Shown here: positions 2,844 through 56,635 of the stretch, piece after piece
How positions within the stretch are numbered: the first letter of the stretch is position 1
How the letters are laid out: each line of letters begins with the position of its first letter
Virus record (IMG/VR): IMGVR_UViG_3300035136_000041
Span: 1 to 63,198 of that record
From: a virus
Taxonomy: Duplodnaviria; Caudoviricetes
Direction: 5' to 3' (one strand)
Length of the DNA stretch: 63,198 nucleotides
The notes under the pieces: model-generated
What the model was told of the DNA's origin: nothing
The model's input: only the letters and a program-made list of their open reading frames with translations
Database searches by the model: none
Program-made: the position numbers and the translations under genes

Positions 2844-2866
2844 CGACAAGAGTCGAGGAGAAGACA

Positions 2867-7689: not shown

Positions 7690-7944
7690 ATGGCTCGCAA
7701 ACCAATTGAGAAATTCTTCGTTGTCCCAGGACCATTCGGTCCTGTGCGGGATCCGATAACGATGAGGATGTTATCCGACAAAGGTGAGTGGAAGCCAAAG
7801 AATATGTATTGGCTGCGCAAGGTGAAAATGCGCGACGTGGTTGACAAGACTTCGGAGAAGCGCGCTCACGACAAACAGCCGAAACTAGCGTTGGAGACAG
7901 AGCAGCAAGCCGATCAGAAGCAAAAGAAAGGTGAATCCAAATGA
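7690..7944 (+). CDS. Mu gp38-like protein (DUF2635-type)
   Basis: VRDPITMRML...GEWKP...YWLRKVKMRDVV, directly before the sheath gene. Confidence 0.85.
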   Translation: MARKPIEKFFVVPGPFGPVRDPITMRMLSDKGEWKPKNMYWLRKVKMRDVVDKTSEKRAHDKQPKLALETEQQADQKQKKGESK

Positions 7945-9419
7945 GCATTTCATTCGATCTCATCTCGACGAACCTACGCACTCATGGGGTGTTCACTGAG
8001 TTCTCGAATGCGCGAGCTGTCTCTACCGCTCCGGACATTCCGAGTGTCGCACTGATCATCGGACAACGTTTGGCAGCTGGTACAGTCGCGGCTGAGGTTC
8101 CTATCTCAGTTCCCAGCGCCGCTAAAGGTGAGGAGTATTTCGGTCATGGGTCGATCCTCGCCCATATGATCGATTACTTCAAGGCAGCCAATCCGTATAC
8201 GGAGTTGTGGGCCGTAGCACTCGATGATGATGGCGGCGGGACTGCTGCCACTGGGACGTTTGTGTTTTCCGGCACCGCAACCGATGATGGCGTGGTCTAC
8301 ACGTACATCGGTGGGGAGCGCATCACGACTGCTGTGTCCCTCAATGACGCTGCTGCGACGGTTGGGGCGGCTGTTGTTGCCGACATCACTGCATATGTGG
8401 CCGAGCACAACCTGCCAATTTCCGCGGCCGGCACGTCGACTGTAACGATCACATGCCTCCACAAGGGCACACTTGGAAACTACATCAATCTAGCTCAGAA
8501 TCTGATCCCAGGTGAAGCGTTGCCGGCTGGTATCACTTGCGTCATCACTCAAGTCGGCAGCGTGATTACTGGAGCAACTGATCCTGACGTTGCCGACGCA
8601 ATCACGGCCATCGGTGGATCTTGGTTCCAGACGATCATATCTGCCTACGCCGATGACACCAATCATGACAAACTCGAGGCTATGGCGCTTAGTTGGTGGC
8701 ATCCATATGAGCAAAAGGACACATCGCTATTTATTGGAGCGATTGGAAACCAGGCCGCCCTCACTGCCCTGGGGAATGCGCGCAACAGCCAGTTCACCGT
8801 TCTGATGGGTGGTGGATTGAGCTCGTCTCCGCCGTGGGCTTGGGCGGCAGTGACTGGGGCTGTAGACGCGTATGAGTCTGACCCGGCTCGTCCGAGGCAG
8901 ACTTTGACGCTCACTGGATTGCGTGCTCCAGCGCAGCCTGACATCTTTACGCAGACCGAGCGGAACACTTTGCTCTACGATGGGGTCTCGACGTTTACTG
9001 TGGGTACTGACGGAACGTGCTATATCGAGCGTTTGATCACCACGTACCAGACGAACGCTCTCGGCGTGGTAGACTCGAGTTACCTCAATCAGACTACCAT
9101 GAGGACCTTGGCCGCTTTGAGATACACCTGGAACGCCTGGGTAGCCTTACGCTTCCCGCGAGCCAAGCTTGCTGATGACACAGCCAACGTGCCAACTGGA
9201 CAATCGATTGTCCAACCGAAGACGCTTGTCAGTGAGGCGTTGGCTTGGTTCCGGTGGTGCGAGACCGAAAAAGGTTGGGTTGAGAACTGGGAGCAGTTCA
9301 AGGATGACCTGCTCATCGAGAGAGACTTGACCGACAAAGACAGAGTCAACATGCGCATGTCTCCCGACCTCATGAATCAATTCCGAGTCTTGGCTGGGCA
9401 GATTCAGTATCTACTATAA
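7941..9419 (+). CDS. Tail sheath protein (Mu gpL-like)
   Basis: GVFTEFSN, FGHGSIL, DPARPRQTLTL, ERNTLLYDGVSTF, IERLITTYQ, FPRAKLADD. Confidence 0.95.
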   Translation: MSISFDLISTNLRTHGVFTEFSNARAVSTAPDIPSVALIIGQRLAAGTVAAEVPISVPSAAKGEEYFGHGSILAHMIDYFKAANPYTELWAVALDDDGGGTAATGTFVFSGTATDDGVVYTYIGGERITTAVSLNDAAATVGAAVVADITAYVAEHNLPISAAGTSTVTITCLHKGTLGNYINLAQNLIPGEALPAGITCVITQVGSVITGATDPDVADAITAIGGSWFQTIISAYADDTNHDKLEAMALSWWHPYEQKDTSLFIGAIGNQAALTALGNARNSQFTVLMGGGLSSSPPWAWAAVTGAVDAYESDPARPRQTLTLTGLRAPAQPDIFTQTERNTLLYDGVSTFTVGTDGTCYIERLITTYQTNALGVVDSSYLNQTTMRTLAALRYTWNAWVALRFPRAKLADDTANVPTGQSIVQPKTLVSEALAWFRWCETEKGWVENWEQFKDDLLIERDLTDKDRVNMRMSPDLMNQFRVLAGQIQYLL

Positions 9420-27763: not shown

Positions 27764-28648
27764 TCACTTTGATCGCATAGGCATTTGATCCCATACTCTT
27801 CCCAGGACTTTCGGCATCTTGACAACCTGTCCGCCTTCGTGTGCTTGTTTCACAAATACAGGTATGTCGCTATCGACACATTGCCTAACAATGCCCGCAA
27901 TCCATTGATTGTCGCACTCGCGACGTCGAGGTCCTGACTCGGACCCTATGATTAGCCAATCAGCTTCGGAGTGACAATTCTCATTCATGGTGCCGCTGTA
28001 GACACGTCTGAGATCTATCGGCCCCAAAAGCGGCTCGAGCGAGAGGAAACGTAGGACGGCTGGAGTCCTGCGTAGATCTGGCCACAAACGTTCGAGGTCT
28101 GATTGTGTTGATGCTGACACTCCGAGCAAGACATTAGGTAAAGGCCACTGTAAGCATCCCCATTGTTTTGCAATCAAACGACCTGCTTCTTCGACAGAAT
28201 CAATAGCATAACTAGCAACTACCTTTGCTGTCCTACTATCACCCAATCTGAAATAGTTAGAATATTCAGGTGCTGGCAAACATTCTGATGTTTGTTGAAA
28301 CCATCGCCTCATTCTGTCTGGTCGTTTTGTGAGAACCAAATATGTATGGTTTGGAGTGGCTGCCATCACTCCAAAGATTGCCGCAATGTCTTCACTGCTA
28401 ACCTCTTTATGAAACAGATCCCCCATTGAACAGACGAATATCCCCTTACGCGGATTTCTCCATCGCAGTGGTTGGGTGAATCTATCACGATGCAACGTCA
28501 CCTTGAATGGATCGTCTGCCGGATATCCACATCTACCACGCAGACGTTTTGCCATTCGCTCGGCGTAGCAATTTTTGCAGCCGGTAGCTATTTTGGTGCA
28601 TCCTGTTACAGGATTCCAGACCTCATCAGTCCATTCGATCTTAGTCAT
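27764..28648 (-). CDS. Phage Gp37/Gp68 (DUF5131) radical-SAM-like protein
   Basis: TKIEWTDEVWNPVTGCTKIATGCKNCYA, FVCSMGDLFH, LTKRP, FLSLEPLLGP, GSESGP, FVKQ. Confidence 0.92.
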   Translation of the reverse strand: MTKIEWTDEVWNPVTGCTKIATGCKNCYAERMAKRLRGRCGYPADDPFKVTLHRDRFTQPLRWRNPRKGIFVCSMGDLFHKEVSSEDIAAIFGVMAATPNHTYLVLTKRPDRMRRWFQQTSECLPAPEYSNYFRLGDSRTAKVVASYAIDSVEEAGRLIAKQWGCLQWPLPNVLLGVSASTQSDLERLWPDLRRTPAVLRFLSLEPLLGPIDLRRVYSGTMNENCHSEADWLIIGSESGPRRRECDNQWIAGIVRQCVDSDIPVFVKQAHEGGQVVKMPKVLGRVWDQMPMRSK

Positions 28649-29879
28649 CGACGATCTCCCCATCGCAAATCACGATCGAGCACCCAGCCCCATCGTCACT
28701 CACCCTCTCAAGCCAGATTTGAGCGTCGTGCTCCTCAGCCATCTGGGCCATGATCTTGAGACCCTCTTCATCAAGACGTGACCCATCACGTATACGTAGC
28801 ACGTTGAGCTTGGGGTTCATCGCCAATCCAATAGCCGTTGACACGCGCAATCGTTGACCATGGCTAGCTTGCTCGAACGGCACCTCATCGAAAGTCACCC
28901 CATCATCTGTAGCCGCGAGACCTTTGATTGGGTACTTGGCGTTTGCTGTTGCGTCGGCCTTCACCTCGTCGATCTGATGAATATAATTCGTCAGTCGATC
29001 CGATTCAGCCATCTGCTCTTTAAGCTCTGTCTCGAGACGGCGCCGTTCCTTCATGGATCGCACTGCGGCGTTTGTCTGCTCGGCGGTGGCAATCTTCTCG
29101 CGGATTTCGTCGAGGTCTTCATCGACAAGCGTCTTCACTTCGCCGGCTAGACGTTTGCCTTCGTCGGACGTGACCTTGAATTCTTCGCGAAGCTTAGCCA
29201 GCTTCTCCTCTGTCCGCTTGATTTCCTCGAGGAGACTTTTCGCGGTAGACCGCAACCCGTCGAGCATTTGCCGTTGCTCAGCGTTCGCCGCATTCACTTC
29301 CCTGCGGCGATCAATCTCCTTGGTGAGCTCGGCGACCGAGACTTCTTCATCCGGCACCTTGGCTCTTGGTGGCAGCTTCGAGATCGCCCCTTGTAGACGT
29401 TTGATCTCGCGCCCCACCTCGGTACGTTTATCGTATGCTTCCTTACGCTTCTCGTTCTCAGCGGTAAAGTCGAGCCCGACGAGCTTACGCAGAGTCTCAG
29501 CTTGCTTCTTCGGAGGCATGCGTTCGAACTCGAGGGGATCGAAGCTGATCGGTGAAGTGATCTCATCGAACAATTGTTGCGGTGATGTGATCCGCGAGCC
29601 ATCCTTCGCATCGACTTTGAGGTATTCACCTTTCTCTGTGATCGTCAGCCTCGCGACGAACTCATCTGTCTCCATAACGATATTGGATTTGTCGTCACCA
29701 TGACGGATTGGGTCGCGTGGTATGCGTTTCTTGCCGCCGAGAATAGCATCGATCGCAGATAGGACGCTTGTCTTCCCACTTCCATTGACCCCGCCAATGA
29801 CGACCAGAGATCCATCTGGTTCGATCTCGGCGGTCTTGATCTTCATGAATGACTTGATATCGAGTCTTGTAATTTTCAT
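28641..29879 (-). CDS. SMC/RecN-like ABC ATPase
   Basis: Walker A GVNGSGKTS, long coiled coil, QASHGQ signature, IRDGSRLD. Confidence 0.88.
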   Translation of the reverse strand: MKITRLDIKSFMKIKTAEIEPDGSLVVIGGVNGSGKTSVLSAIDAILGGKKRIPRDPIRHGDDKSNIVMETDEFVARLTITEKGEYLKVDAKDGSRITSPQQLFDEITSPISFDPLEFERMPPKKQAETLRKLVGLDFTAENEKRKEAYDKRTEVGREIKRLQGAISKLPPRAKVPDEEVSVAELTKEIDRRREVNAANAEQRQMLDGLRSTAKSLLEEIKRTEEKLAKLREEFKVTSDEGKRLAGEVKTLVDEDLDEIREKIATAEQTNAAVRSMKERRRLETELKEQMAESDRLTNYIHQIDEVKADATANAKYPIKGLAATDDGVTFDEVPFEQASHGQRLRVSTAIGLAMNPKLNVLRIRDGSRLDEEGLKIMAQMAEEHDAQIWLERVSDDGAGCSIVICDGEIVDD

Positions 29880-30712
29880 CACCAATTAACCTCGTCTTCA
29901 TCAGTCGGCGTGGGCGGCTCGTCATCAGCGGGCTTTGACGGCTCTGTCTTCGGTGGTGGTCCCTTCGCTTTCTTGCCTACCTTCTGAACACCTTCTTTTG
30001 GTTCCGTCGTTGGTAAATCCAATTGTGCATCTTCGGTTTTATCAATGGGAGCCTCGGTGCTTTTGTCGCGCACGACCTTATGCAGCCCCTCGCGCAACTC
30101 GTCACCCCCCCCGTCCCAATGCGGAGTCACATTGACGATGTCACGTTCCTCTTCAACAACGCGCATACCGCGCAGTTTATCGGGAAAAGCATCGCGTAAT
30201 GCAAAAGCCCTAGCGCGCATCTGGAGCATACGCCATGGGTAATTGTTCCAAGTATTCTTTCCCCAAAGTCCAGCCGTTTTTGCATCATCTATTGTGAATG
30301 AACGTGTAACTGGCACCTTGCCACGACGCTTGGCTGTACAAGTAGCCTTGCCAGTCTTCTTGATCTCCTCGAAGTCATCCTCAATAATGTCTTCGCATTC
30401 CGGATCCGATTTGATGAGTGCCAACATCGCGTCACCCCACAGTGAGGGCCGCCCATTGATTACCGCGATGTTTTGGATCGCAGCCATCGGCGTAAGCCCC
30501 ACCTCAGCGCCCATTTGCATAGCCACGAGGATTGCACCTGGGTTGCCGACATAGTCTTTAGGGACCATTCCGCTATGGGCGATGATCTTGGCACACTCGA
30601 TAGCCTCTTGGAGATTACCCGGCCTCATCATACCAAATGAGTCCAGACCGACAGGCATCGCTTCACGTTTTTGCAGTGCCTTCTCTTCTTGTTTGGTTGG
30701 TTTGTCTGACAT
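29879..30712 (-). CDS. RecT-like single-strand annealing recombinase
   Basis: GAEVGLTPMAAIQNIAVINGRPSLWGD, AKTAGLWGK..W..YP.RMLQMRAR.FALRDAFPD. Confidence 0.88.
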   Translation of the reverse strand: MSDKPTKQEEKALQKREAMPVGLDSFGMMRPGNLQEAIECAKIIAHSGMVPKDYVGNPGAILVAMQMGAEVGLTPMAAIQNIAVINGRPSLWGDAMLALIKSDPECEDIIEDDFEEIKKTGKATCTAKRRGKVPVTRSFTIDDAKTAGLWGKNTWNNYPWRMLQMRARAFALRDAFPDKLRGMRVVEEERDIVNVTPHWDGGGDELREGLHKVVRDKSTEAPIDKTEDAQLDLPTTEPKEGVQKVGKKAKGPPPKTEPSKPADDEPPTPTDEDEVNW

Positions 30713-30721
30713 GTGTGTCTC

Positions 30722-31801
30722 CTATGATTTGCTGACCTTGATTCGTGGCTTGGTGACCTTCTCCACGGCTCCGACTTCGCAAAGCCGCTCCAGTGTTTCC
30801 CTCATGTAAGCCGCCGCTTTGCCTTTGGGAGCTCTTCCTTTCAGGACTTCCTGCAACCCTGATTTAGTAATCTTGAGAGCGATATTAACCTCATCCTTGG
30901 TGAGTTTCAACTCTTCTCTGAGGATGCGCATGGCTTTTGACGGCCTGATATAGTCTTGTTCCTGTTGGTCGATCGTAATCTCTCTACCGTCTGAGGTCAC
31001 AACCGGCCCGCTGGCGATCATGGATTTGAGGACCTTATCATAATGCCGCAATGCTCTTCCTATAACACGCGAACGATCGTATAGGTCAGCAATGACTGTT
31101 GGTGTGATTGACGACTCATCATCGATTGCCTCCAAAGCCGTGATACCTGAGCGAGTCCACTCGTCCTTGGCTCGACAATTCATCTGTCTGGGACAGTACC
31201 GGCAGGCATCATAGCTCGGACCATACCGATTGGGGTCGGCCACTTGAGCGAGTAATTCATCGCGTAGCCTGTCGAGGTCTTCGTCGCGGAACTTGTGAAT
31301 GCGAACCTCGCCTATTCGTACCCAGACTTCGGCCCCTAGGATGTAACCACGATCTGGCATACCATGCATATCGCGTAGCAAATAGGCATAGCTGCGAATC
31401 TGATTTGGATGCTCTGATGGACTCCAACCGAACTTCCAGTCGAGCACCGCATGTCCTGCTACACTGACAAGATCTGATGTTCCTCGTAGAGTGACTTCGT
31501 CAGATAAATCAGCAGCCATATGGCATTCGCACTCAGCTTTTGGATACCACTTTGAAAGCCATTCCCAAGCCTCTTTAGCGCGCCTAGCCATACCGACAAG
31601 CACGTCTGGATCAACACCGTAGATGTCAGCCGCTTGGTCTATGGTGGCCCCAAATCCGGTTATTAACCGAGGCATGCACGCATGGCCAGCAGTGCCCTCG
31701 ATTGCTTCTGGATCGTTTGGCGAATACGGCGCGTCTGTTGGGATGAGACTTCCAGCACAGTGAAGTGCACGATCTGTCGAGCTGGATCTGACCGTTGTCA
31801 T
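30722..31801 (-). CDS. PD-(D/E)XK nuclease (DUF2800/Cas4-like exonuclease)
   Basis: SS..RALHC, AIEGTAGH, LRGTSD, VLDWKFG, QIRSYA, CRYCP...C. Confidence 0.82.
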   Translation of the reverse strand: MTTVRSSSTDRALHCAGSLIPTDAPYSPNDPEAIEGTAGHACMPRLITGFGATIDQAADIYGVDPDVLVGMARRAKEAWEWLSKWYPKAECECHMAADLSDEVTLRGTSDLVSVAGHAVLDWKFGWSPSEHPNQIRSYAYLLRDMHGMPDRGYILGAEVWVRIGEVRIHKFRDEDLDRLRDELLAQVADPNRYGPSYDACRYCPRQMNCRAKDEWTRSGITALEAIDDESSITPTVIADLYDRSRVIGRALRHYDKVLKSMIASGPVVTSDGREITIDQQEQDYIRPSKAMRILREELKLTKDEVNIALKITKSGLQEVLKGRAPKGKAAAYMRETLERLCEVGAVEKVTKPRIKVSKS

Positions 31802-32817
31802 GACGCGTCACCTTTCTTGCTCAGCGCTCTCCACGCTTTCCAAAGCCTACGGATCGCTTCCTTTTCCATACGTCGCTTTGCTCTGTTATGTGCATGTGCC
31901 TTCGTCATCTTTTCATTTCTCTCAAGCTCGTAAGCTTTCCGCGCATCATATATACGTCGGAATTCACCAGCATCTTCGCCCTTCCCCTGACCCTTTATCA
32001 GGCAATCACCAAGCGTCCACACAGCCGACCTCCTGGTTGGAGAGTACCCCATTTCAATCGCCAGCTCTTTATCCAATGTTTTGCACTGCCGCTTCCCCTT
32101 AATGACTGCCAATCCGAGTCGCTTCCAGACTTTAGCAGGATTCGCATACAGAGACAAGTCTCCTGTCTCACCAATGATGCATGCCAAATTTGTGTGCCCG
32201 AACCCTTTCACGGTGTCGACCCACGAGCAGACGGGGAGCTTGGCGGCAAGTTTTGTCATGTCGGCACGCAATCGTTTCTCGGAGCGGTTGATTGTATCGC
32301 GAGCTTGGAACATTGGCTTGCACCAGAGATAGGCCTTGGCAGCAACGGCGTGATGGTTAACACTGTTCTCATGGCCGCCAAGGCCTTCCTGGTTGGCGGC
32401 AACCGCGGAATGGTTAACATTGAGCTCCTGGCCGCCAGGATCCTTATGGATCGCACAGAGCTCTCTATACAGATCGTCTGCGCGTTTCAATCCGGCTTTG
32501 TCATTCTTGCCTTTGACATCGACAAATCGCCGACAAACGGCTTTGACGCGATTGGTAAGTGCGACCTGTATTCTTACGAGATCATTGCGTTGAGCCTTTA
32601 GCTCGCGCAACGTTTCACAGATAGATCCGAGCCCGTCGGCAACTACGGAATGGGCAACACTGCTCGTATGACCAACGGGCTCGGAAAGGTTTTCTGGTTG
32701 AGACATGGCTCGGCTGGTTTGCACTTCCTCAACGGTCTCGCCAGAATCTAGATTGTTTTGAGCAGACATGCTCTGCATGGTGTTCACCGTGTGCTTGGTC
32801 TTACTCAAAGCTTTCAT
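31798..32817 (-). CDS. Nop-domain/IS110-related RNA-binding protein without nuclease domain (TasA-like)
   Basis: AGGAG before ATG; coiled coil LRELKAQRNDLVR..LTNR; WVDTVKGFGHTNLACIIGETGDL..YANPAKVWKRLGL; YDARKAYE...KAHAHNRAKRRMEK; no DEDD RuvC, no catalytic Ser motif; adjacent and embedded guide-like array. Confidence 0.82.
   Translation of the reverse strand: MKALSKTKHTVNTMQSMSAQNNLDSGETVEEVQTSRAMSQPENLSEPVGHTSSVAHSVVADGLGSICETLRELKAQRNDLVRIQVALTNRVKAVCRRFVDVKGKNDKAGLKRADDLYRELCAIHKDPGGQELNVNHSAVAANQEGLGGHENSVNHHAVAAKAYLWCKPMFQARDTINRSEKRLRADMTKLAAKLPVCSWVDTVKGFGHTNLACIIGETGDLSLYANPAKVWKRLGLAVIKGKRQCKTLDKELAIEMGYSPTRRSAVWTLGDCLIKGQGKGEDAGEFRRIYDARKAYELERNEKMTKAHAHNRAKRRMEKEAIRRLWKAWRALSKKGDAS
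32331..32810 (-). ncRNA. TIGR-like stem-loop guide units embedded in the Tas CDS (5 units: 32331-32386, 32387-32440, 32626-32685, 32692-32746, 32756-32810)
   Basis: Each is stem + CCA/TCA/CCG + 9 nt + TGNNNNCCA + 9 nt + TG + complementary stem on the minus strand. Confidence 0.8.
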
Positions 32818-32837
32818 CTTTTTCTCCTAGGCTGAGG

Positions 32838-33135
32838 TTCTAGTGAGACATCATTGACATGGGTAACATTGATCTATAGGTCTCACCAGAAGCCCATTCA
32901 TCATACCACGAAGTTTTGGTGATTGCAATCTCCTAATGGGCATCACGTCAAGTTTGGCAATCACCAATTCATCAACCACCTGGTTCAACAACAGAACATC
33001 GGCGGGCATCACGACTGTGTTGGTCGTCGAGCCAGGCGGCAATCCTTCCTTGGTTTACACTGCCTTACTGACCGCCTAGCTCGACTGACTAATGCACCGC
33101 TACTGTGGGTTACATTCCCCGAGTGGCATTAGTCA
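32838..33135 (-). ncRNA. TIGR-like stem-loop array upstream of Tas (5 units: 32838-32891, 32916-32967, 32979-33036, 33026-33085, 33086-33135)
   Basis: Same 32-nt core; loops TGTTACCCA, TGATGCCCA, TGATGCCCG, TGTAAACCA, TGTAACCCA; 9-14 bp closing stems with G-U pairs favouring the minus strand. Confidence 0.85.
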
Positions 33136-33632
33136 CATCTTGCCTCTTTCTTAAGGCGTTTTAAATCACCCTCCGTGAATACTGCACCAACTACTTTATT
33201 GTCCGGCATCTTATCTGCAATCAACGTGAGCCACTTCGCTCGTCGTCTTTTGCTGTCTGCAATACGGTTGTATAATGCAGCCGTAGCTACAACGTCACCC
33301 TTCATTGCGTGACCTAGTGGCAATCCATCGAGCAATCGAAAACCCATCAGCGAGTCAGCGGCGAATCGAAGTCGCGCCCCACATTGATCTTGTGCAGGTT
33401 CCGATTGGCGAACAGGTTTAGATGATTTCCCAGTTGGGGGGGTGGCAAAGTTCTCGATAGCCAGCTGGCATGCCTGCCTAAGGAACGGCTCGGTCAACAT
33501 CCGCCAGAGCAATTTGTCTTTGCGAGCTTCACTCTCGAGCCGATCAACGGCGTCTTGTTTAGTCTTGGTCCTCTTGATCGCAGTCGATATGTAACGCCGC
33601 AGATAGACTTCGTTCGCATCGTCTGTCGCCAT
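33129..33632 (-). CDS. Hypothetical protein heading the TIGR-Tas operon
   Basis: AGGAG before ATG 33632; its stop codon lies in the stem of the first guide unit. Confidence 0.7.
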   Translation of the reverse strand: MATDDANEVYLRRYISTAIKRTKTKQDAVDRLESEARKDKLLWRMLTEPFLRQACQLAIENFATPPTGKSSKPVRQSEPAQDQCGARLRFAADSLMGFRLLDGLPLGHAMKGDVVATAALYNRIADSKRRRAKWLTLIADKMPDNKVVGAVFTEGDLKRLKKEARCD

Positions 33633-33781
33633 GATCGCTCCTGAGCTGTAAAACTGCATGACTGGTGATCGCCGCTAGTAGCACCCAAGATCACCAGTCA
33701 GGCAGACCTACTGCCATTGGAATACGATGTACACTACAACTCCATTTTGGCTCCTCTCGTCTTTTTAAGTTTGTTTCATGC

Positions 33782-33810
33782 ACTGTGACCTACCGCTCGC
33801 GAGATGTCAA
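33782..33810 (-). promoter_or_regulatory. Leftward promoter for the TIGR/recombination operon
   Basis: TTGACA-N17-CACAGT on the minus strand. Confidence 0.5.
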
Positions 33811-33904
33811 GCACAAAATCTCTGTGTGAGGATTTCGTCTCGTAACATTTATATAGACGCTCACACTAGGCCGATCTACGCTCGCATCTTTTTTTTCAGG
33901 ACGC

Positions 33905-33934
33905 TTGACAAGCAGATTCGCATGTGTCTAAATA
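33905..33934 (+). promoter_or_regulatory. Rightward promoter for the XRE/ParB/helicase operon
   Basis: TTGACA-N18-TAAATA. Confidence 0.5.
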
Positions 33935-33953
33935 TCGTCGACAGGAGGATGTT

Positions 33954-34178
33954 ATGAGTCTCGAAGATATGGGCGAGACAGTTAGGGTTGTCCGAATTAT
34001 GAAGGACATCTCAATCAGGGAAATAGCTCGCCGAGCAGAAACAAATCCCAACACAATCCTTAATCTCGAGAGCACCGGAGCAGTGACACTCAAGACGCTG
34101 CTCAAGGTGGCGAAGGCTCTGAAAATTAAGGCAAGCGACCTCACTCGCATCGCGGAGAAAAATCATGGAAAAGCGTAA
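33954..34178 (+). CDS. XRE-family HTH regulator
   Basis: ISIREIARRAETNPNTILNLES...TLKTLLKVAKAL; AGGAGG before ATG. Confidence 0.88.
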   Translation: MSLEDMGETVRVVRIMKDISIREIARRAETNPNTILNLESTGAVTLKTLLKVAKALKIKASDLTRIAEKNHGKA

Positions 34179-35145
34179 GACGGCAATTGTCAACCCGAAG
34201 GATCTTATTCCTCCAAAGGGGCATGTGCTCAATGCTGATGTTGTAGATTCGATTGCCGAGTCGATCAGCAAGGTTGGACTTCTACAACCGATTGCCATAG
34301 TTGGACGTCACATCAAGTATGGTGTCCATCGTTGGGCTGCGGTGATGAAGCTCGGATACGAGGAGATAGAAGTGATTCGGGACAGAAAAGTTGAGACTGA
34401 CGACGAGCACGATGCGCAAGTTATCGTCGAGAATCTCTGTCGGCATCACTACAAGGGTCAAAAACTGGATGACATGCGCAAGCGGCTCGTAGATCTCTGG
34501 GAGCCTCAAATCGCCCAGGAGATGAAGATTTCGCAAAAAGACACAAATATTGCCAAACCACAAGATGATACCGGTGATGGGCAAAAACGATCGCCAGGGA
34601 GAAAAAAGACAGCCCGCGGCAAAGCCATCAAACAAGTAGCAAAACAAACTGGCACCACCGAGGGTGCCGTCAAAGAATCAGTGAGACGGGCAAAGGCCGC
34701 CGAAGCCGGCGTCACCCCCAAGCAGCCAGACGATCCACCACCGTTAGATGAGCCGGAGGTCACCGTCGACGACTACGGCACCGAGATCCCCGAGGGCGAG
34801 GTCGGCAGGTGGAACGAAGCTCGACAGCTGCTCGACGAGCTCGACAGCATCATGCGTGGAGTACAAATCAAGCTCGGCGAACTCGTCAAGATCAAGGGGA
34901 TGCCCTACTCGGTGGTGAGCGATCTCGACAAGCGTGCACAGCAATTCGCTGAGCTCGCTCAGAAGTACCATCCGGTGGCTCTATGCCTCGAGTGCAGCGG
35001 TACGGGCAAGAACCCAAACAACACCAACGGGTGCACTCATTGTGTGGGAGTCGGCTTCATCGCTGAGGTTAACTACAAAGCTCAGACGAAGCCAGCCACC
35101 GTCGAGGAGGAACCAACCTTCACCGAAGACGACCTGGACTGGTAG
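34165..35145 (+). CDS. ParB/Srx-like protein with C-terminal Zn finger
   Basis: IAESISKVGLLQPI...GVHRWAA...VENLCR; CLECSGTG...CTHCVGVG. Confidence 0.8.
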   Translation: MEKRKTAIVNPKDLIPPKGHVLNADVVDSIAESISKVGLLQPIAIVGRHIKYGVHRWAAVMKLGYEEIEVIRDRKVETDDEHDAQVIVENLCRHHYKGQKLDDMRKRLVDLWEPQIAQEMKISQKDTNIAKPQDDTGDGQKRSPGRKKTARGKAIKQVAKQTGTTEGAVKESVRRAKAAEAGVTPKQPDDPPPLDEPEVTVDDYGTEIPEGEVGRWNEARQLLDELDSIMRGVQIKLGELVKIKGMPYSVVSDLDKRAQQFAELAQKYHPVALCLECSGTGKNPNNTNGCTHCVGVGFIAEVNYKAQTKPATVEEEPTFTEDDLDW

Positions 35146-35147
35146 CT

Positions 35148-36860
35148 ATGTCCTCGCAAGCCGATCTATTCAATATAGCTGCTAGTGAGCCAGAGCAGCT
35201 ACCTGAGCCTGAGGTTTTTCAGCCAGCTCAGCAACTACGCGACTACCAAATCGAGGCGGTCGAAGCTGTCGAGAGAGAGCTGCAAGAGAATCGGGGGACG
35301 CTTGTCCTCTGCGCCACCGGATTAGGCAAGACGAGCTGTGCGGCAGAACTCATCCGCCGATCGAAAGGGCGTTGCCTATTTGTTGCCCACCGTGATGAGC
35401 TCATTCAGCAGGCTGCTACTCGTATCGAGCAATTTACCGGCGAGTGGCCGGATATCGAACAGGCGCAGGCGAAGGCTGATGCTCGTGGCGGCAAGCATGT
35501 TGTCGCATCTGTCCAGACTCTGAGCCGGAAGAAACGACTTGAGCGGTGGGATCCGAGCGAGTTCGGGCTGATAATCGTCGATGAATGTCACCACGCCACA
35601 GCGAAAACCTATCGGCGCATCATCGATTACTTCGATGGGAAGGTGGTCGGCCTTACTGCTACCGGAGATCGAGCCGATAGAGTGTCTCTCGGTCAAGTGA
35701 TGGACTCGGTCGCGTATCGATACGAGATCAACGATGCGATTCGAGACGGGTGGCTGTGCGAAATCGTGATGAAGACGATCCGTGTTGGGTCCCTCGATTT
35801 CTCGAAGCTCCATACGGTAGCTGGCGATTTCAATCAAGGGGAGCTTGAGCAGCTCATGCAGCTCGAGCAAAATCTGCATGCGGTGGCCAAGCCCACCGTC
35901 GAGTGTTCTGGTGATCGCAAGACTGTTGTTTTTACGACTTCAGTGGCTCATGCGGAGCGGCTGGCTGAAATTATCGATAGGTATGCTGGCGATGGCTCCG
36001 CGAAAGTAATCCATGGTAGCACCCCAAAAGAACTTCGGAGATCAATCCTACGAGAATTCGATAGGGGCGATTTCCAATACCTGACTAATGTCGGCGTGCT
36101 TCTCGAGGGTTGGGATTCACCAGGCGTGTCATGTGTCAGCATGGCTCGCCCAACAAAGAGTCGAGCCCTGTTCGCTCAGGCTATAGGACGTGGGACTAGA
36201 GGCGGAACTCTCTGCCCTGTCGAAGGTAAAGACGATGGATTACTCGTCCTAGACTTCGTCGGCAACTCCGGCAAACACGAGCTCGTCTGCACAGCCGACA
36301 TCCTCGGCGGCAACGTCTCCCCCGAAGAGCTCGAGATAGCCAAGAAACTGATCGAGAAGTCCGACAAACCGAAGTCAATCGACGAGGCTGTCGAAGAAGC
36401 CAAGGCTAAGATTGCACACGACTTGAGCGAAGCCGCAAAGCGCCGGCGCTCCAATATCGTCGGGGAAGTCGAATACGACGTCAAGGACTTCAATCCATTC
36501 ACCATGTTCAGGGTCAGGCGCGACTACCTCACCGAGAGACACGGCATAGCGCCGGCTACTGAAAAGCAGATGCAAGCAATCACCAAGTGGATGGGAAAGC
36601 ACGGCAAGCACGCCCCAGCGAATCTCTCGAAGAGCGAAGCCTCAAAGCTACTCGCCGAGTTCGCTAGCCGTAGAGAGAAAGGCCTAGCCACCTACGGCCA
36701 AGTGAAATTCCTCGCGACGAAGAAGCTCGATGCGCGTGGTTGGAGCTTCCATCAGGCCAGCCAATTGATCACGTGGATTTCTTCACATGGATGGATTAAT
36801 CCTCCGCCGAGCGTGGTAGCATCAATCACCAGGGGGCGAGAGCCAGGAGAAGACGGATGA
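35148..36860 (+). CDS. Superfamily II DNA helicase
   Basis: LRDYQ, ATGLGKT, VDECHH, GLTAT, LLEGWD, QAIGRG. Confidence 0.93.
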   Translation: MSSQADLFNIAASEPEQLPEPEVFQPAQQLRDYQIEAVEAVERELQENRGTLVLCATGLGKTSCAAELIRRSKGRCLFVAHRDELIQQAATRIEQFTGEWPDIEQAQAKADARGGKHVVASVQTLSRKKRLERWDPSEFGLIIVDECHHATAKTYRRIIDYFDGKVVGLTATGDRADRVSLGQVMDSVAYRYEINDAIRDGWLCEIVMKTIRVGSLDFSKLHTVAGDFNQGELEQLMQLEQNLHAVAKPTVECSGDRKTVVFTTSVAHAERLAEIIDRYAGDGSAKVIHGSTPKELRRSILREFDRGDFQYLTNVGVLLEGWDSPGVSCVSMARPTKSRALFAQAIGRGTRGGTLCPVEGKDDGLLVLDFVGNSGKHELVCTADILGGNVSPEELEIAKKLIEKSDKPKSIDEAVEEAKAKIAHDLSEAAKRRRSNIVGEVEYDVKDFNPFTMFRVRRDYLTERHGIAPATEKQMQAITKWMGKHGKHAPANLSKSEASKLLAEFASRREKGLATYGQVKFLATKKLDARGWSFHQASQLITWISSHGWINPPPSVVASITRGREPGEDG

Positions 36861-37838: not shown

Positions 37839-39032
37839 ATGGCCCTGAAGTTCCATTCCGCAGCCGATCTTTTCCCGTTGATGAGCGACGCCGATATCGA
37901 CAAGCTTGCCGAGGACATTCGAGAGCATGGACTCGTCGAGCCAATCGTCGTGCACAGAGACGATGGCTCGATCCTCGATGGGCGGAATCGCTATCTGGCC
38001 TGCAAGAAAGCGAAGGTGAAGCCAGATACTGAGCAATGGGATGGCCCCGCCGGCTCAGAAGTCACCTACGTTATCTCTCGCAATCTCCACCGACGCCACC
38101 TCAACGAGAGCCAGCGAGCCATGATCGCAGCCCGAGTCAAGTCGATGTTTGAGGCGGAGGCAAAGAAGCGGCAACTAGCCACACTGAAGCGGGGAAAAGA
38201 AGCACCAGCCCCCGTTAAGGAAAATTTACCTGAACGGGACAAGGGTCAGTCTCGAGATCACGCCGGCGAGATGTTCAAGGTCTCTGGGCGCTCGGTCGAC
38301 CACGCCGCAAAAATTCTTAAGAACGCGAGCCCGGAGCTCGTGCAGGCTGTAGACGATGGGACAGCTACGCTCGCTCAAGCCACCAAGCTCATGGGACAGG
38401 ATCACGACACCCAACGCAAGGTCATCTCACGAGCACGGGAGACCGGCAAGACTGCAACGGAAGCATACAGGGTCGTCAAGGCTGAGCACATTGCAAAGGC
38501 AGAGATGACAAAGCCAAGTGGCAAATACCGAGTCATCCTTGCTGACCCACCATGGTCCTACGGCAACAGCATGCCGCCCGGTACCACAGAGCCTCGCGAT
38601 CATTATCCGACGATGAGCCTTGAGGATATTTGCGCATTGCCAGTCAAAGACATGGCTCAAGACGATGCGGTGCTTTTTCTTTGGGTGACCTCCCCCCTTG
38701 TCCCGGAATCCATGCAAGTGATTGAGGCGTGGGGGTTCAAGTACAAAGCAAGCTTCGTTTGGGATAAAGTCAAGCACAACATGGGGCATTACAACTCAGT
38801 CCGCCACGAATTCTTGTGGATCTGCGTCAGAGGAAGCTGCCAACCAGACGTGCGAAAGCTATTTGATTCGGTGGTCGTCGAGGAGCGCACCGAGCATAGC
38901 AAAAAGCCAGAGCAATTCTACGAGATCATCGACACGCTCTATCCACAAGGCAAGCGCATAGAGCTCTTCGCTCGCGCAGCGCGAAAGGGTTGGCAACGGT
39001 GGGGATTTGAAGCGGGAGAATCAGATGCGTGA
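37839..39032 (+). CDS. ParB-like N-terminal domain fused to MT-A70 adenine methyltransferase
   Basis: HSAADLFPLM...GLVEPI...ILDGRNR...NLHRRHLNESQRA; VILADPPW, HYPTM, LFLWVT, WGFKYK, HSKKP, ELFAR. Confidence 0.92.
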   Translation: MALKFHSAADLFPLMSDADIDKLAEDIREHGLVEPIVVHRDDGSILDGRNRYLACKKAKVKPDTEQWDGPAGSEVTYVISRNLHRRHLNESQRAMIAARVKSMFEAEAKKRQLATLKRGKEAPAPVKENLPERDKGQSRDHAGEMFKVSGRSVDHAAKILKNASPELVQAVDDGTATLAQATKLMGQDHDTQRKVISRARETGKTATEAYRVVKAEHIAKAEMTKPSGKYRVILADPPWSYGNSMPPGTTEPRDHYPTMSLEDICALPVKDMAQDDAVLFLWVTSPLVPESMQVIEAWGFKYKASFVWDKVKHNMGHYNSVRHEFLWICVRGSCQPDVRKLFDSVVVEERTEHSKKPEQFYEIIDTLYPQGKRIELFARAARKGWQRWGFEAGESDA

Positions 39033-41455: not shown

Positions 41456-41770
41456 AATCTCCAGCAAATCGCCGATTCTACCCAGCACAGCCAGCTTAAT
41501 CCAGCTCCAGTCCAGCTACCGTCCAGGTATACATGGTGCAGCTGGACCAGCTGAACACCAGCTCAATCCAGCTAAACTATCAACTATATACTTTCGGATT
41601 CAATCCCTAGGTATAGGCATAGACTAGGTGATAGGTATAGCAATGACGGGCGTCATAGGTACCACTAGACTAGTCTATTAGTAATACCCTGCCCAGCCTA
41701 GGTAGGGGGTAGACAATGGGTTAGGTATAGTTTAGGGTAGGGGATAGATAGGCGTAGGTAATGGTAGACA
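41456..41770. repeat. Putative replication origin: CCAGC cluster followed by TAG-rich tract
   Basis: Many CCAGC copies at 41461-41573; repeated TAGG/TAGGTAT/TAGA at 41608-41770. Confidence 0.5.
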
Positions 41771-42229: not shown

Positions 42230-42570
42230 ATGAAAGCAGTCTACATCGCAGGCCCATTCAGAGCACCGACCCGTGGGAAGTCGAGACCAATATCCGCACC
42301 GCGGAGACGAACGGTTTGTACGTGGCCAAGCTCGGAGCGATTCCACGAATCCCTCACACCATGTATCGATTCTTCGACGGCTCGCTGCCGGACGAGTTCT
42401 GGTTGGAGGCGGCCATGAGTCTGTTGCGGACGTGCGACGCGATCCTCATGCTGCCTGGCTGGCGACGCTCGAGAGGATCGGCGGCAGAGCTGGCTGTGGC
42501 TGAGAAGCTGGGCATGGTGGTTTTGTACAGCCTGACTGAGCTCGGGGACTGGCTTGAAGCGAATCGCTGA
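42230..42570 (+). pseudogene. Nucleoside 2-deoxyribosyltransferase-like (DUF1937/DUF4406-type) gene split by a 1-nt frameshift
   Basis: MKAVYIAGPFRAPT continues in the -1 frame as PWEVETNIR...IPHT...CDAILMLPGWRRSRGSAAE. Confidence 0.75.
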
Positions 42571-51784: not shown

Positions 51785-52062
51785 TGGAACGAAGGCTCTC
51801 TCTTGAAGAAGCCGTTATCAGAACCGTCAAACGCCATAGTGATTTTGTTGATGGAGTTACTCCTGAGTTTTTTGGTTGTCAACTATGCGATTATGCCGAG
51901 CCGGATTGTCGCAGATGTCCTTGTGTTCAGGTATTCGGCGCTCACTGTAACGGAATAAATCTACCTTCGCACCCTCTAGACGAACACTATCCCCGCACTC
52001 ACGAGGAGAAACTTCTCGCTGCTTGCATGATTGCAGCTGTGCTCGGGATTGAGGTGGAGTGA
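51784..52062 (+). CDS. Cys-rich protein (paralog B)
   Basis: CQLC...CRRCPC...GAHC...KLLAACMIAAVLGIEVE. Confidence 0.55.
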   Translation: MERRLSLEEAVIRTVKRHSDFVDGVTPEFFGCQLCDYAEPDCRRCPCVQVFGAHCNGINLPSHPLDEHYPRTHEEKLLAACMIAAVLGIEVE

Positions 52063-52646
52063 TGACTCAACAACTTACTATGTTCGAAGACGTTCTGCTT
52101 TGGTCCAAAGCGGTTGGGCAATACATTCAACAGAATGCAGGGCTGTCTATGTGCGGAAAAGAGTTCAAAGCTCAAGGGCTTTCTATGACTCTTGTTGCTG
52201 AGGAATTCGATGAGCTGAAGATAGCATTCCTGACTGGCGACGTGAAAGAGATAGCTGATGCTCTCGCCGATCTCGTCTGGGTGTGCCTCCGTATGGCGCA
52301 AGCTTTTGGTATTGACTTCGATGCTGCTTGGTGCGAGGTATCCCGGACGAATTGGGAGAAGGTTGGTGGGCCTAGACGAGAGGACGGAAAACTGCTAAAG
52401 CCGCCCGGGTGGAAGCCGCCGGATATGACGAAGGCATTGAGTGCTGACTTGTATGAGCGGATTGCCCAGCTTCTCACGATAGTACCACCACCTGAGAAAA
52501 AGAAATGCCCCAAATGTTGTGGCGAGGGTTGGGTATGGGGGAGAGATCTAGACACCGATCGCAAGGATATGATCCTTGACGATATGATGTACCCATGCGA
52601 CAATCCTGGGTGCGTGGATGGTTTTGTTGAAGAGGAGGAGACATGA
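52059..52646 (+). CDS. MazG-like NTP pyrophosphohydrolase with C-terminal Zn finger
   Basis: LVAEEFDEL...EIADALADLVWV...EVSRTNWEK...REDGKLLKPPGWKPPD. Confidence 0.85.
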   Translation: MMTQQLTMFEDVLLWSKAVGQYIQQNAGLSMCGKEFKAQGLSMTLVAEEFDELKIAFLTGDVKEIADALADLVWVCLRMAQAFGIDFDAAWCEVSRTNWEKVGGPRREDGKLLKPPGWKPPDMTKALSADLYERIAQLLTIVPPPEKKKCPKCCGEGWVWGRDLDTDRKDMILDDMMYPCDNPGCVDGFVEEEET

Positions 52647-53086: not shown

Positions 53087-53979
53087 GAGCTGACTGGAAA
53101 GCGATTAGGACGGTATATTATTGGGGTGGATTAAAGAATGCCAGAATTTGGTCTGAAACACCACTTCTCGATACATTAGATTTCTCTAAGACAATTTCTT
53201 TATACCCACGCAATGTCCCATGTATGGGTTTGTCACATTTGCCGAATTTACCGATGTGTCCAGTCATTATAAGAATTAACCGTGGGTATAATCTATATCA
53301 TCGTATGGATCCGGTTATTGGTTTTCCGGTAAAGAAAGCAGAAGATGATTCGAATCTATCAATTTATTCTACCGCTGCCAGGATCAGTCGGAACGCAGAA
53401 TCGGATTCAATATGGAATATTGAAATTGTTTACGAATTGGATGATGTTGCACTACAGATTGCCGATAGAAAGCAATTTATCTATATGAGAATAATATATG
53501 ATTTTTGTGAGAACAAAATTGACATCTTTAATTGGCGTGGTAAAATTGTCAATATAGACAATCGCAGCGATGAGTTCGAGAGGCGCCATGTTTATGATGT
53601 TATCAAGATTATTAATGCTATCGATCACTCTTCTAAGCACGTTGTTGAGGTCATGCAGCTCGCTGCTGACGGCAAACCTATGCGAGCAAGACATACCACT
53701 AAACCTTGGACTCGTGAAGATCCCCGTAATGTGATTTTGATAGATCCATCCGAGGCGAAGAAGTACGGCCATCGAATCGACCGCTGCGGGACGCATGCCA
53801 GCCCAATCCCTCACACACGTCGAGGTCACTACGCAACACTTCGGGCTGATCGTTTCGGAGTAAATAAAGGCAAGAGGATATGGAGAAAACCAGCTTGGGT
53901 TGGCGATACAGAGTGGATTTTTGAAGGAAGACAGTATAAAGTTATCTCTCCCGAAGCGATGCGCGGAGGTGCAATGTAA
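53083..53979 (+). CDS. Hypothetical protein (AT-rich 5' half; HxRRGH motif)
   Basis: HASPIPHTRRGHY...IWRKPAWVG. Confidence 0.7.
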   Translation: MRADWKAIRTVYYWGGLKNARIWSETPLLDTLDFSKTISLYPRNVPCMGLSHLPNLPMCPVIIRINRGYNLYHRMDPVIGFPVKKAEDDSNLSIYSTAARISRNAESDSIWNIEIVYELDDVALQIADRKQFIYMRIIYDFCENKIDIFNWRGKIVNIDNRSDEFERRHVYDVIKIINAIDHSSKHVVEVMQLAADGKPMRARHTTKPWTREDPRNVILIDPSEAKKYGHRIDRCGTHASPIPHTRRGHYATLRADRFGVNKGKRIWRKPAWVGDTEWIFEGRQYKVISPEAMRGGAM

Positions 53980-54054
53980 TGCATGGTGGGGCTTGGCGGG
54001 GCGATGCTGGGCAAGGCGAAGTAAAGCAAGGCGAAGTAAAGCAAGGCAAGGTTA
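53955..54054 (+). repeat. Pentamer array 1 (NGY-NN x20)
   Basis: Strict 5-nt periodicity of G-Y, e.g. GGT GG GGC TT GGC GG GGC GA TGC TG GGC AA. Confidence 0.85.
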
Positions 54055-54059
54055 ATCAG

Positions 54060-54395
54060 ATGAATGTTTGCATAGTTTGTACGGAATTCAATCGTGGGAA
54101 TTCGACCAAGTTCGCTGCGATCGATCTTGCTAGTCGAGATATCGCCAGCTACGTGTCGAACAACTACGCTCACATCGATCGGTGTGAGGCAGTCTACGTC
54201 TATAATGCGGATGGAAGAATCAATTTCGACGTGGCGGCTTGTATTGGGTACGCTATCGCCAAAAAGAAGGTGATCTTCTCGTTCTTACCGATTGGGCTCT
54301 CTGCCATCGAGGTTCCGGTGTGCGATCCGGACGAGCTGACTAATCAGGTGATTCTGGACGAGTTTGTGAAGAACAGGATCGGGGATGAATCATGA
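54060..54395 (+). CDS. Hypothetical protein (NDT/TIR-like Rossmannoid)
   Basis: HIDRCEAVYVYN...IGYAIAKKKVI. Confidence 0.55.
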   Translation: MNVCIVCTEFNRGNSTKFAAIDLASRDIASYVSNNYAHIDRCEAVYVYNADGRINFDVAACIGYAIAKKKVIFSFLPIGLSAIEVPVCDPDELTNQVILDEFVKNRIGDES

Positions 54396-56200: not shown

Positions 56201-56635
56201 ATGGCTATCATCCCAGCTAAATCGATCAAGCTTATAGTGAATGGTGTTGAAATCACAAAAGAATATATCGATAGTCTCCGCATTGGATTTAAACCGGAGA
56301 TTGTGGATGCTTTTACAAAACCCATCCAAGGAGAGAAGTGCACTTCACTATCAGAATGGACTACAAGACATGAGGTCGAGAGATTCACAGAGTATGCTTA
56401 TTGGAAAAATCTGATAGAGGAAGATGGGGCATCACTCATAGTCGAAGTAAGGAATAATGATTGTATAGCCGCAGAGCGCATTCTGCATCAGCGAGTTGCT
56501 CGAAATCATAAATGGCCTTTCTGCCCAGTTCATCAGAGGAATGTCGATCTTGTTTTCTCTCACTTGGATGGCCGTGATGATGTGTTGATCCATATAGCCT
56601 ATTGGCTATGTAAGAAATGTGCTGAGGAAAAGTGA
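56201..56635 (+). CDS. Hypothetical protein
   Basis: GGAGG before ATG. Confidence 0.5.
   Translation: MAIIPAKSIKLIVNGVEITKEYIDSLRIGFKPEIVDAFTKPIQGEKCTSLSEWTTRHEVERFTEYAYWKNLIEEDGASLIVEVRNNDCIAAERILHQRVARNHKWPFCPVHQRNVDLVFSHLDGRDDVLIHIAYWLCKKCAEEK

Follow-up and report, generated by a model that had tools for sequence, protein, structure and literature searches.

A stem-loop TIGR-TasA cassette probably heads an early phage operon beside a standard recombination module, without a dedicated partnership

Introduction

Stem-loop TIGR-TasA systems, of which PlTasA, BlTasA and MbTasA are described examples, are built around a Tas protein that carries a coiled coil and a Nop-like domain and lacks a nuclease, together with hairpin units in which two short spacers surround a conserved loop element; in the parts of these accounts on which we draw, the units lie upstream of the tas frame and inside it, where they fall in disordered protein regions, and the systems are located in phages (PMC12045711; 10.64898/2026.09.09.750476; 10.64898/2026.08.11.744272). 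The same features are found in the 63,198-bp tailed-phage contig analyzed here, which makes up the whole of record IMGVR_UViG_3300035136_000041 and is called the window below. On its minus strand, a gene for a 176-amino-acid protein (p176), a stem-loop TIGR array and tasA are followed by genes for a Cas4-like exonuclease, a RecT-like annealing protein and an SMC-like ATPase. An earlier note on this DNA had proposed that TasA may recruit the nuclease or the recombinase, or that the module may diversify the spacers, which, if true, would make the locus a natural RNA-guided recombination or spacer-making device. In this study, we find that the conserved unit among Tas homologues is the cassette of p176, stem-loop TIGR array and, last, tasA, and that this cassette probably heads an early operon beside a standard recombination module with which it has no dedicated partnership.

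The absence of an HNH or RuvC nuclease domain is what separates TasA from TasH and TasR. The portions of Faure et al. (2025; PMC12045711) used here give TasA no clear associated proteins apart from the ParB-like TasParB. Excerpts of Xu et al. (2026; 10.64898/2026.09.09.750476) describe TasA acting as an RNA-guided transcriptional repressor and intragenic tigRNAs placed in disordered Tas regions of other TasA genes. In the sections of the TIGR texts consulted, no adaptation machinery is known for TIGR arrays (PMC12045711; 10.64898/2026.09.09.750476), nor is it known which nuclease or which auxiliary factor carries out the maturation of stem-loop tigRNAs (PMC12045711; 10.64898/2026.09.09.750476; 10.64898/2026.08.11.744272).

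Unlike the published stem-loop systems, as far as the excerpts describe them, the units in the window have no evident canonical box C or box D, and the window and its relatives encode the conserved upstream p176, which those excerpts do not mention. TasParB-TasA operons, in the portion of PMC12045711 that covers them, resemble the locus in joining tasA to a small conserved partner gene, possibly with the array between the two. The arrays in the published case are, however, of the dual-repeat rather than the stem-loop type; p176 is not ParB-like when compared with a stand-in ParB-like protein and is therefore distinct from the TasParB partner of Faure et al.; and the window's own ParB-like gene lies on the opposite strand, 1.35 kb off.

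Two further comparisons concern the neighbouring genes. RecET and lambda Red modules likewise pair an exonuclease gene with a neighbouring gene of the RecT family, in an early operon that also contains accessory genes; the window differs in that its exonuclease, which has an additional C-terminal region, belongs to the Cas4/PD-(D/E)XK iron-sulfur type, and in that an SMC/SbcC-like ATPase and a DUF5131 protein are encoded downstream. Cas12k with its Tn7-like transposases, and CRISPR systems of types IV and V-M, resemble the idea in the earlier note in that each uses a guided binder without a nuclease of its own, but in the parts of the accounts drawn on, partner genes are conserved with the effector there, whereas recombination genes are not conserved with tasA here.

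Results and discussion

The recombination module is not conserved beside tasA

A survey of the neighbourhoods of Tas homologues had been set beforehand as the test of the proposed link. It covered 132 Tas loci, namely the best 80 of 183 confirmed viral contigs and 52 species-representative genomes, the latter mostly Alphaproteobacteria prophage regions; collapsing these at 90% Tas identity left 119 non-redundant loci. Flanks reach at most 7 kb per side, with at least 4 kb covered downstream in 95 of the 119 and upstream in 91. A metagenome scan with Tas gave one distant locus only. When the window proteins were searched by phmmer against the 132 loci, the exonuclease and the ATPase each matched once and RecT not at all. 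Among the non-redundant loci, the window's type of exonuclease lies downstream in two (L001 and L114), its type of ATPase in two, and its type of RecT in none. The linkage is thus not kept among Tas homologues, and even in the nearest relative, L001, whose Tas is 78% and exonuclease 79% identical, a 66-amino-acid open reading frame (ORF; 7938-8138, plus strand) separates tasA from the exonuclease gene, so that the overlap of these two genes is lost. Since the specific link is not conserved, the claims of guided recombination and of spacer making are to be set aside: the survey supports neither the recruitment of a nuclease or recombinase by TasA nor the diversification of spacers by the module. 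The caveat attached to them, that the linkage could be incidental, agrees with the lack of conservation of recombination genes beside tasA.

What follows tasA is varied. The 353 same-strand downstream genes of at least 100 amino acids within 4.5 kb fall into 304 clusters, and the PHROG scan took in 300 of the 304 cluster representatives, four from L130 being left out. Tape measure, baseplate, terminase, portal, head protease, endolysin, integrase, ParB-like, methylase, regulator and recombination genes are all represented. When the annotated clusters are mapped back, 23 of the 119 loci have a same-strand recombination or repair gene in the 5 kb downstream, and the same clusters occur upstream in 11. 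With phmmer seeds applied to the full flanks, recombination genes, which come from eight unrelated families, are found on the same strand downstream in 25, upstream in 17 and on both sides in one, and 78 loci have none of the tested recombination families in their flanks. The families present in flanks are Sak4, Bet/RecT, Erf, RecE-like, phrog_69 and phrog_10477 exonucleases, a Cas4-type exonuclease, SbcCD, SSB and NinB.

These counts bear directly on the idea that the Cas4-like nuclease and RecT are the missing acquisition or diversification machinery of the TIGR array. In CRISPR systems, the trimming of prespacers falls to nucleases of the Cas4 family, the exonuclease in the window has Cas4-type cysteine and catalytic motifs, and TIGR arrays are, as mentioned above, without known adaptation machinery. 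Such a role is nonetheless highly improbable, given the two loci with this nuclease type and the absence of this RecT type from all 119; arrays are present in 84 loci regardless, and exonuclease-RecT pairs are standard recombination genes of phages, as their PHROG families indicate.

Recombination genes of several families follow tasA at some loci

Several observations weigh against a cassette with no tie at all to its neighbours. Recombination and repair is the commonest annotated class directly after tasA, and in 11 of the 119 loci (a raw count) such a gene, from one of eight different families, starts within 500 nucleotides (nt) after tasA. The 11 encode a RecE-like exonuclease, Sak4 (in two), a phrog_10477 exonuclease (in two), a phrog_69 exonuclease, a Cas4 exonuclease, an SbcC-like protein, SbcD, Erf and SSB. 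L033 repeats the arrangement of the window, its RecE-like exonuclease gene and the Tas stop having 4 nt in common. Nothing lies between in this locus and in L051, where Sak4 starts at +30; a small ORF intervenes in the other nine. Among genes immediately upstream, 4 of 100 are recombination-related (AAA_24/Sak4, RecA, RuvC and Gp157). The single operon that would run from p176 to the recombination genes is plausible, and tigRNA processing and guided DNA binding at this locus are predictions from sequence.

The downstream families differ from one another and would therefore reflect several independent juxtapositions. There is a weak positional tendency for recombination genes of many families to follow tasA. 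It agrees with a cassette whose usual place is among the early DNA-metabolism genes, where it often heads an operon, and is compatible with a looser functional tie; the tendency is a lead that can be tested in the catalogue of ~20,000 tas loci.

A closer tie would be functional cooperation, in which TasA with its tigRNA, together with p176, opens and bends the guided site and hands it to the exonuclease, the annealing protein and the ATPase, resulting in guided degradation or recombination. Co-transcription looks likely, the end of tasA in the window runs into the start of the exonuclease gene, and the overlap in L033 is a second, independent one; the 11 loci with a recombination or repair gene within 500 nt and the 25 with one within the downstream flank point the same way. 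In support of this, TasR unwinds 18 bp and bends DNA by ~180 degrees, and help from TasA to recombinases has been speculated upon, in the parts of Faure et al. (2025; PMC12045711) available to us. We nevertheless consider cooperation unlikely. The would-be partners are non-homologous and inconsistent, and 78 of the 119 loci lack every tested family within flanks of at most 7 kb per side; many cassettes sit amid tail, terminase, lysis or integrase genes; and recombination families also lie upstream in 17 loci. The module itself is found without Tas: relatives of the ATPase occur in 134 phage records as against three for Tas, both by tblastn, and in the one ATPase context inspected, that of Arthrobacter phage Sonali, the ATPase is accompanied by an exonuclease and SSB and by no Tas. 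A survey that set out from the exonuclease returned only the contig of the nearest relative and three 27-residue matches. The excerpts of Faure et al. (2025; PMC12045711), in which TasA has no clear association besides the ParB-like gene, also count against cooperation.

A more general version of the idea, which we hold to be very unlikely, is that TasA and p176 form a two-protein guided complex whose opened and bent target is used by whichever recombination machinery adjoins it, be it RecT, Sak4, Erf, RecE-like, Cas4-like or SbcCD. If true, this would amount to RNA-guided, site-specific stimulation of homologous recombination or of end processing, and would explain why non-homologous recombination genes are found repeatedly directly after tasA.

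The window's recombination module and its junction with tasA

The gene identities given in the earlier note, namely a nuclease-less Tas, a PD-(D/E)XK/Cas4-like nuclease, a RecT-type annealing protein and an SMC-like ATPase, are borne out by Pfam, PHROG, PDB and Foldseek, and the overlap of the tasA stop with the nuclease start does read ATGA on the minus strand (coordinates and family matches are collected in Table 1). In the translation of the exonuclease, D109, D120-x-K122, a QxxxY and four cysteines can be picked out by eye; this D..D-x-K, QxxxY and four-cysteine pattern we take to be the set of Cas4-type motifs, and the PD-(D/E)XK active site appears intact. The exonuclease has a C-terminal extension of ~90 residues (~270-359) with a weak match to HTH_31 (E 1.9e-4, 22.1 bits against a cut-off of 27); such an extension is unusual for a recombination exonuclease, and the copy in the nearest relative is cut by the contig end. 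The annealing protein matches Pfam RecT with an E of just 0.028, under the cut-off, and its gene, as in RecET/Red pairs, lies next to that of the exonuclease, here across a 9-nt gap. An N-terminal stretch of the ATPase resembles SMC_N, below the cut-off.

From tasA through the exonuclease, RecT, ATPase and DUF5131 genes, the junctions measure -4, +9, -7 and -23 nt. A consensus scan gave one terminator-like site on the minus strand of the scanned stretch, at 27880-27863 within the DUF5131 gene, and none between the p176 gene and the ATPase gene, such sites being at background level overall. A single operon is plausible given the tight junctions and the lack of a terminator-like site from p176 to the ATPase. 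The ATGA overlap itself is not distinctive, because exact 4-nt overlaps join 14 of the 80 adjacent same-strand gene pairs in the genome; overlaps of any length join 37.

Another explanation for the arrangement is that the coupling acts on expression only. Since tigRNA units lie before and within tasA, their excision would sever the mRNA, and the amounts of TasA, exonuclease and the products of later genes would be set by the transcript left unprocessed. Four units upstream and three to five within the tasA frame would make this possible, as would the stop/start overlap, and intragenic tigRNAs may tie guide maturation to Tas translation, as suggested in the excerpted parts of 10.64898/2026.09.09.750476. 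We find this quite unlikely. A purine-rich stretch that resembles a ribosome-binding site lies, by eye, ~6 nt before the exonuclease ATG, so independent initiation of the exonuclease is possible, and an internal promoter-like site at 32928-32900 is at background level.

The reading that we prefer, a cassette next to a module to which it owes nothing in particular, can be spelled out as follows. The leftward early operon would open with p176, the TIGR array and tasA and continue into an ordinary single-strand-annealing module, and the two most likely work independently. The array transcript would be cut into hairpin tigRNAs with two ~9-10 nt spacers each. These would load a TasA dimer that binds matching DNA without cutting it, making TasA an RNA-guided blocker or repressor, as shown for other TasA proteins and presumably true of this one. 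As the conserved partner, p176 could act as a co-factor, either when guides mature or when the effector does its work. Judging from their families, the exonuclease would resect DNA ends, RecT would anneal single strands and the ATPase would assist. The ATGA overlap would then reflect the tight gene packing seen across the genome.

The effector is a TasA

The 339-amino-acid protein is the TasA of a stem-loop TIGR-Tas system with intragenic guides, a kind that is already known. Residues 176-332 match the TIGR-TasR structure 9mty (9mty_A) with an E of 5.2e-9 (phmmer against PDB), in an alignment that begins at chain residue 150, past the N-terminal part of TasR. An AlphaFold2 model built on an alignment of 28 homologues has a mean pLDDT (predicted local distance difference test) of 82.5. 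In a Foldseek search of PDB with this model, TasR or TasH complexes take every one of the first ten places (E 3.1e-6 to 7.4e-4), with alignments to TasH chains covering ~288 columns; IS110-family recombinases and Prp31/Nop5 rank below them. The model has residues 1-60 disordered, long helices at 63-98, 107-125 and 151-191 (pLDDT >90), a low-confidence loop at 126-150 and a helical C-terminal domain after the third helix. The Nop-like C-terminal RNA-binding domain characteristic of TIGR-Tas is thus present, the modelled coiled-coil helices lie ahead of it, and dimerization is predicted. No HNH or RuvC nuclease domain was found: no Pfam family reaches E<=0.01, and the N-terminus is disordered in the model. 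A member of the same family, gp42 of Gordonia phage Morrissey, is among the proteins that Faure et al. (2025; supplement file 3) tabulate as Tas.

We rejected the reading of this protein as a decayed IS110-family transposase rather than a Tas effector, which we regard as scarcely credible. It owes its attraction to annotation, in that the best PHROG families of the protein are named 'transposase', the only label that PHROG gives it (phrog_4285, 1.5e-14), and Pfam Transposase_20 matches weakly (E 0.024). The recombinases IS621 and ISCro4 are also among the fold matches (E 9e-3 to 2e-2), with which TasA has a related RNA-binding C-terminal fold in common. TasR and TasH structures, however, outrank the IS110 folds; the hallmark DEDD/RuvC N-terminal catalytic domain of IS110 has no Pfam match in a protein whose N-terminus is modelled as disordered; a structured, multi-unit guide array flanks and penetrates tasA family-wide, in place of a bridge RNA; and the published Tas table includes the family member just mentioned.

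A stem-loop TIGR array precedes and enters tasA

The 311-nt gap between p176 and tasA folds into four hairpins, with a z of -4.2 against 100 shuffles. Each unit is built of a 9-14 bp stem and a 30-32 nt loop, in which two variable stretches of ~9-10 nt surround a common 9-nt motif resembling TGT(A/T)A(A/C)CCA. The 9-nt element with flanking inverted repeats occurs three more times within the tasA frame, and a degenerate form of the loop motif has seven matches on the minus strand between 33114 and 32362, as against eight elsewhere on both strands of the 63-kb genome. This is the adjacent two-spacer stem-loop guide array expected of TIGR-Tas, and the spacers that the earlier note had spoken of are accordingly there, in seven hairpin units with two spacers each.

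When the seven 52-nt units are aligned without gaps, 93.5% of the stem cells are paired, compared with 57.7% in shuffles, none of the 500 shuffles being as high, and 10 of 11 stem pairs have both-sided (compensatory) changes. Because the structure comes from these same units, which are paralogues, it is the slid-register control, in which pairing is 22-58%, that carries the weight. Only C12, T41, G42 and the loop motif are invariant in the seven, the C following the 5' stem arm and the T preceding the 3' arm. Canonical boxes C and D (RUGAUGA, CUGA) are not seen in register in any of the seven, and CTT near some stems is, by eye, inconsistent. No Rfam family matches with E<=1 across 31700-34300.

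A covariance model built from the seven scores them at 45.6-55.6 bits, and its top matches outside this training set in the whole window are two weaker candidates within the first 42 codons of tasA. As these lie in the first 42 codons, most of the disordered N-terminal tail of TasA may be array read as protein. The intragenic units fall in the low-confidence N-terminal tail and inter-helix loop of the TasA model (pLDDT <60), in the manner known from other TasA genes.

Across homologues, the model gives 277 matches with E<=1 over 122 sources, 275 of them on the Tas strand. The 84 of 119 loci already mentioned have at least one match, with a median of three and a maximum of ten. Of the 270 same-strand matches in these loci, 265 fall in the interval from -2500 to +600 nt relative to the Tas stop and 142 between the p176 stop and the Tas core, and a Tas-free control locus has none. 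In L018, two model-matching hairpins (2861-2997, plus strand) lie ~4 kb upstream of the Tas gene, off the main cluster, and could be a second sub-array.

Targets of the spacers were sought in the phage's own genome by combining spacer A with the reverse complement of spacer B, and in the reverse arrangement, with gaps of 0-3 nt, at most 2 mismatches in 18 and two boundary registers; for all seven units and both strands, there were no matches outside the array. Between array units 3 and 4, a promoter-like site (32928-32900, minus strand) consists of TTGCAA, a 17-nt spacing and TATGAT, with TG ahead of the second hexamer. It could drive unit 4 and tasA separately, such sites occurring at the background rate in the region.

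p176 is the conserved partner of tasA

A same-strand homologue of p176 lies upstream of Tas in 104 of the 119 non-redundant loci by iterated hidden Markov model (HMM) search, and its position is always upstream. In nine of the 15 loci that lack it, the sequence available ahead of the Tas core is shorter than ~1,300 nt. Single-sequence phmmer recovers it in 50 of 132 loci. In 44 of the 74 gene-called cases, p176 ends beyond the point at which Tas was called to start, a number that may be overstated because Tas starts were called as the longest ORF. The family alignment suggests that the true start of p176 in the window may be the ATG near 33632. By contrast with p176 itself, the gene immediately upstream of it has no conserved identity; 14 of 100 match any Pfam family, and these are of mixed kinds.

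The family is large. A profile search of 1.84 billion cluster representatives at 50% identity gave 3,799 members with E<=1e-3, 1,980 with E<=1e-10 and 490 with E<=1e-30, and the best 150 relatives are all 154-211 amino acids long. Of 43 members examined, none has a Pfam match that stands out, and PDB yields no sequence match. The AlphaFold2 model (pLDDT 85) has helical domains at 10-72 and 95-175 joined by a disordered linker. The full-length model found nothing in PDB by Foldseek better than an E of 1.3; VIA-align over 48,161 chains gave a best Z of 5.3, from generic helical hairpins that cover residues 115-176 only; the best match in BFVD was an unnamed protein with an E of 0.027; and the ESM Atlas gave no usable match. 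As regards a ParB-like character, hhalign of the p176 profile with the window's ParB-like protein, a stand-in for the published TasParB, returned a probability of 0.5%, and no ParB family is among the 25 Pfam families listed over the 43 members.

Two cultured phages carry the p176-tasA pair, Rhizobium phage RHph_X2_25 (HMM E 1e-35) and Gordonia phage Morrissey (HMM E 2.2e-8), and both have model-matching hairpins. The pair is flanked by a repressor C gene and an XRE gene in RHph_X2_25 and corresponds to gp43 and gp42 in Morrissey. One p176 member searched by tblastn against phage records gave no match. Neither a p176-like partner nor a link of Tas to recombination genes was found among the matches listed in full-text searches on TIGR-Tas, which is weak evidence of absence, as these are a small share of all matches.

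Given this conservation, stem-loop TIGR-TasA systems may have in p176 an accessory protein that has so far gone undescribed. A conserved protein, translationally close to tasA across a clade of such systems, is a more interesting lead than the recombination genes, and a concrete candidate for the open questions of how stem-loop tigRNAs mature and what the native role of TasA is in phages, for which RHph_X2_25 and Morrissey are at hand.

Genomic setting

The contig has a complete tailed-phage gene set by PHROG annotation. Head protease, major head protein, adaptors, tail sheath and tube, tape measure, baseplate and fibres are encoded on the plus strand at 0.4-23 kb, and small and large terminase and portal at 57-62 kb. 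The genome further encodes a sigma factor (56632-57366), a Holliday-junction resolvase, a MazG-like pyrophosphatase (52059-52646), two DNA methylases and a fragment resembling nucleoside 2-deoxyribosyltransferase (42316-42570). Neither an integrase nor a CI-type repressor was found among the 79 window proteins scanned.

Genes are on the minus strand from 23.9 to 33.7 kb and on the plus strand from 33.9 kb on, and GC and AT skew flip sign at ~24 kb and ~34 kb. From the skew flips and the strand switch, the tasA locus is therefore taken to be part of a leftward operon that diverges from a rightward one.

Table 1. Coordinates of the cassette, the recombination module and the divergent region in the window
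Feature	Position	Strand	Description
DUF5131 (phage Gp37/Gp68-type) gene	27764..28663	-	Follows the ATPase gene; Pfam 1.2e-70, phrog_2045 9.6e-83
SMC/SbcC-like P-loop ATPase	28641..29885	-	414 aa; AAA_23 1.5e-11, phrog_1499 1.1e-95, SbcC-like phrog_77 2.4e-13
RecT-like single-strand annealing protein	29879..30712	-	277 aa; phrog_561 'RecT-like ssDNA annealing protein' 7.7e-45
Cas4-like PD-(D/E)XK exonuclease	30722..31801	-	359 aa; Pfam PDDEXK_1 1.7e-6 (above cut-off), phrog_69 'exonuclease' 1.3e-18
Overlap of tasA stop and exonuclease start	31798..31801	-	Reads ATGA at 31801-31798
tasA	31798..32817	-	339 aa; coiled coil and Nop-like C-terminal domain, without nuclease domain
Three intragenic tigRNA units within tasA frame	32333..32681	-	32630-32681, 32390-32441, 32333-32384; 49.0-55.6 bits
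Two weaker candidate units	32692..32809	-	32757-32809 (17.9 bits, E 0.088), 32692-32746 (14.7 bits, E 0.47)
Intergenic TIGR array, four hairpin units	32839..33136	-	Fold z-score, motif clustering, covariation, covariance model
Intergenic units	33085-33136, 33030-33081, 32916-32967, 32839-32890	-	Covariance model 45.6-50.4 bits
p176	33129..33659	-	176 aa, no known family; upstream of tasA
Divergent control region	33660..34178		Non-coding DNA, then the plus-strand small helix-turn-helix (HTH) gene that opens the rightward operon
Small Cro/XRE-like HTH gene	33924-34178	+	HTH assigned by eye; no PHROG family at E<=1e-6
ParB-like gene	34165-35145	+	Pfam and PHROG scans; rightward operon
SNF2 helicase gene	35148-36860	+	Pfam and PHROG scans; rightward operon

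Besides the ParB-like gene of the rightward operon, a second ParB gene in the window is a ParB-methyltransferase fusion (37839-39032, plus strand), and in the survey, ParB-like genes lie directly 3' of tasA in L104 and L111. Tandem repeats at 41482-41640, in an intergenic gap of ~300 nt, comprise 4.4 copies of an 11-nt unit and 1.9 copies of a unit that has a 17-nt consensus and a period of 18, and could be the iterons of a replication origin. Within the ORF at 53979-54395, a 15-nt sequence is repeated perfectly in 2.5 copies (54011-54047).

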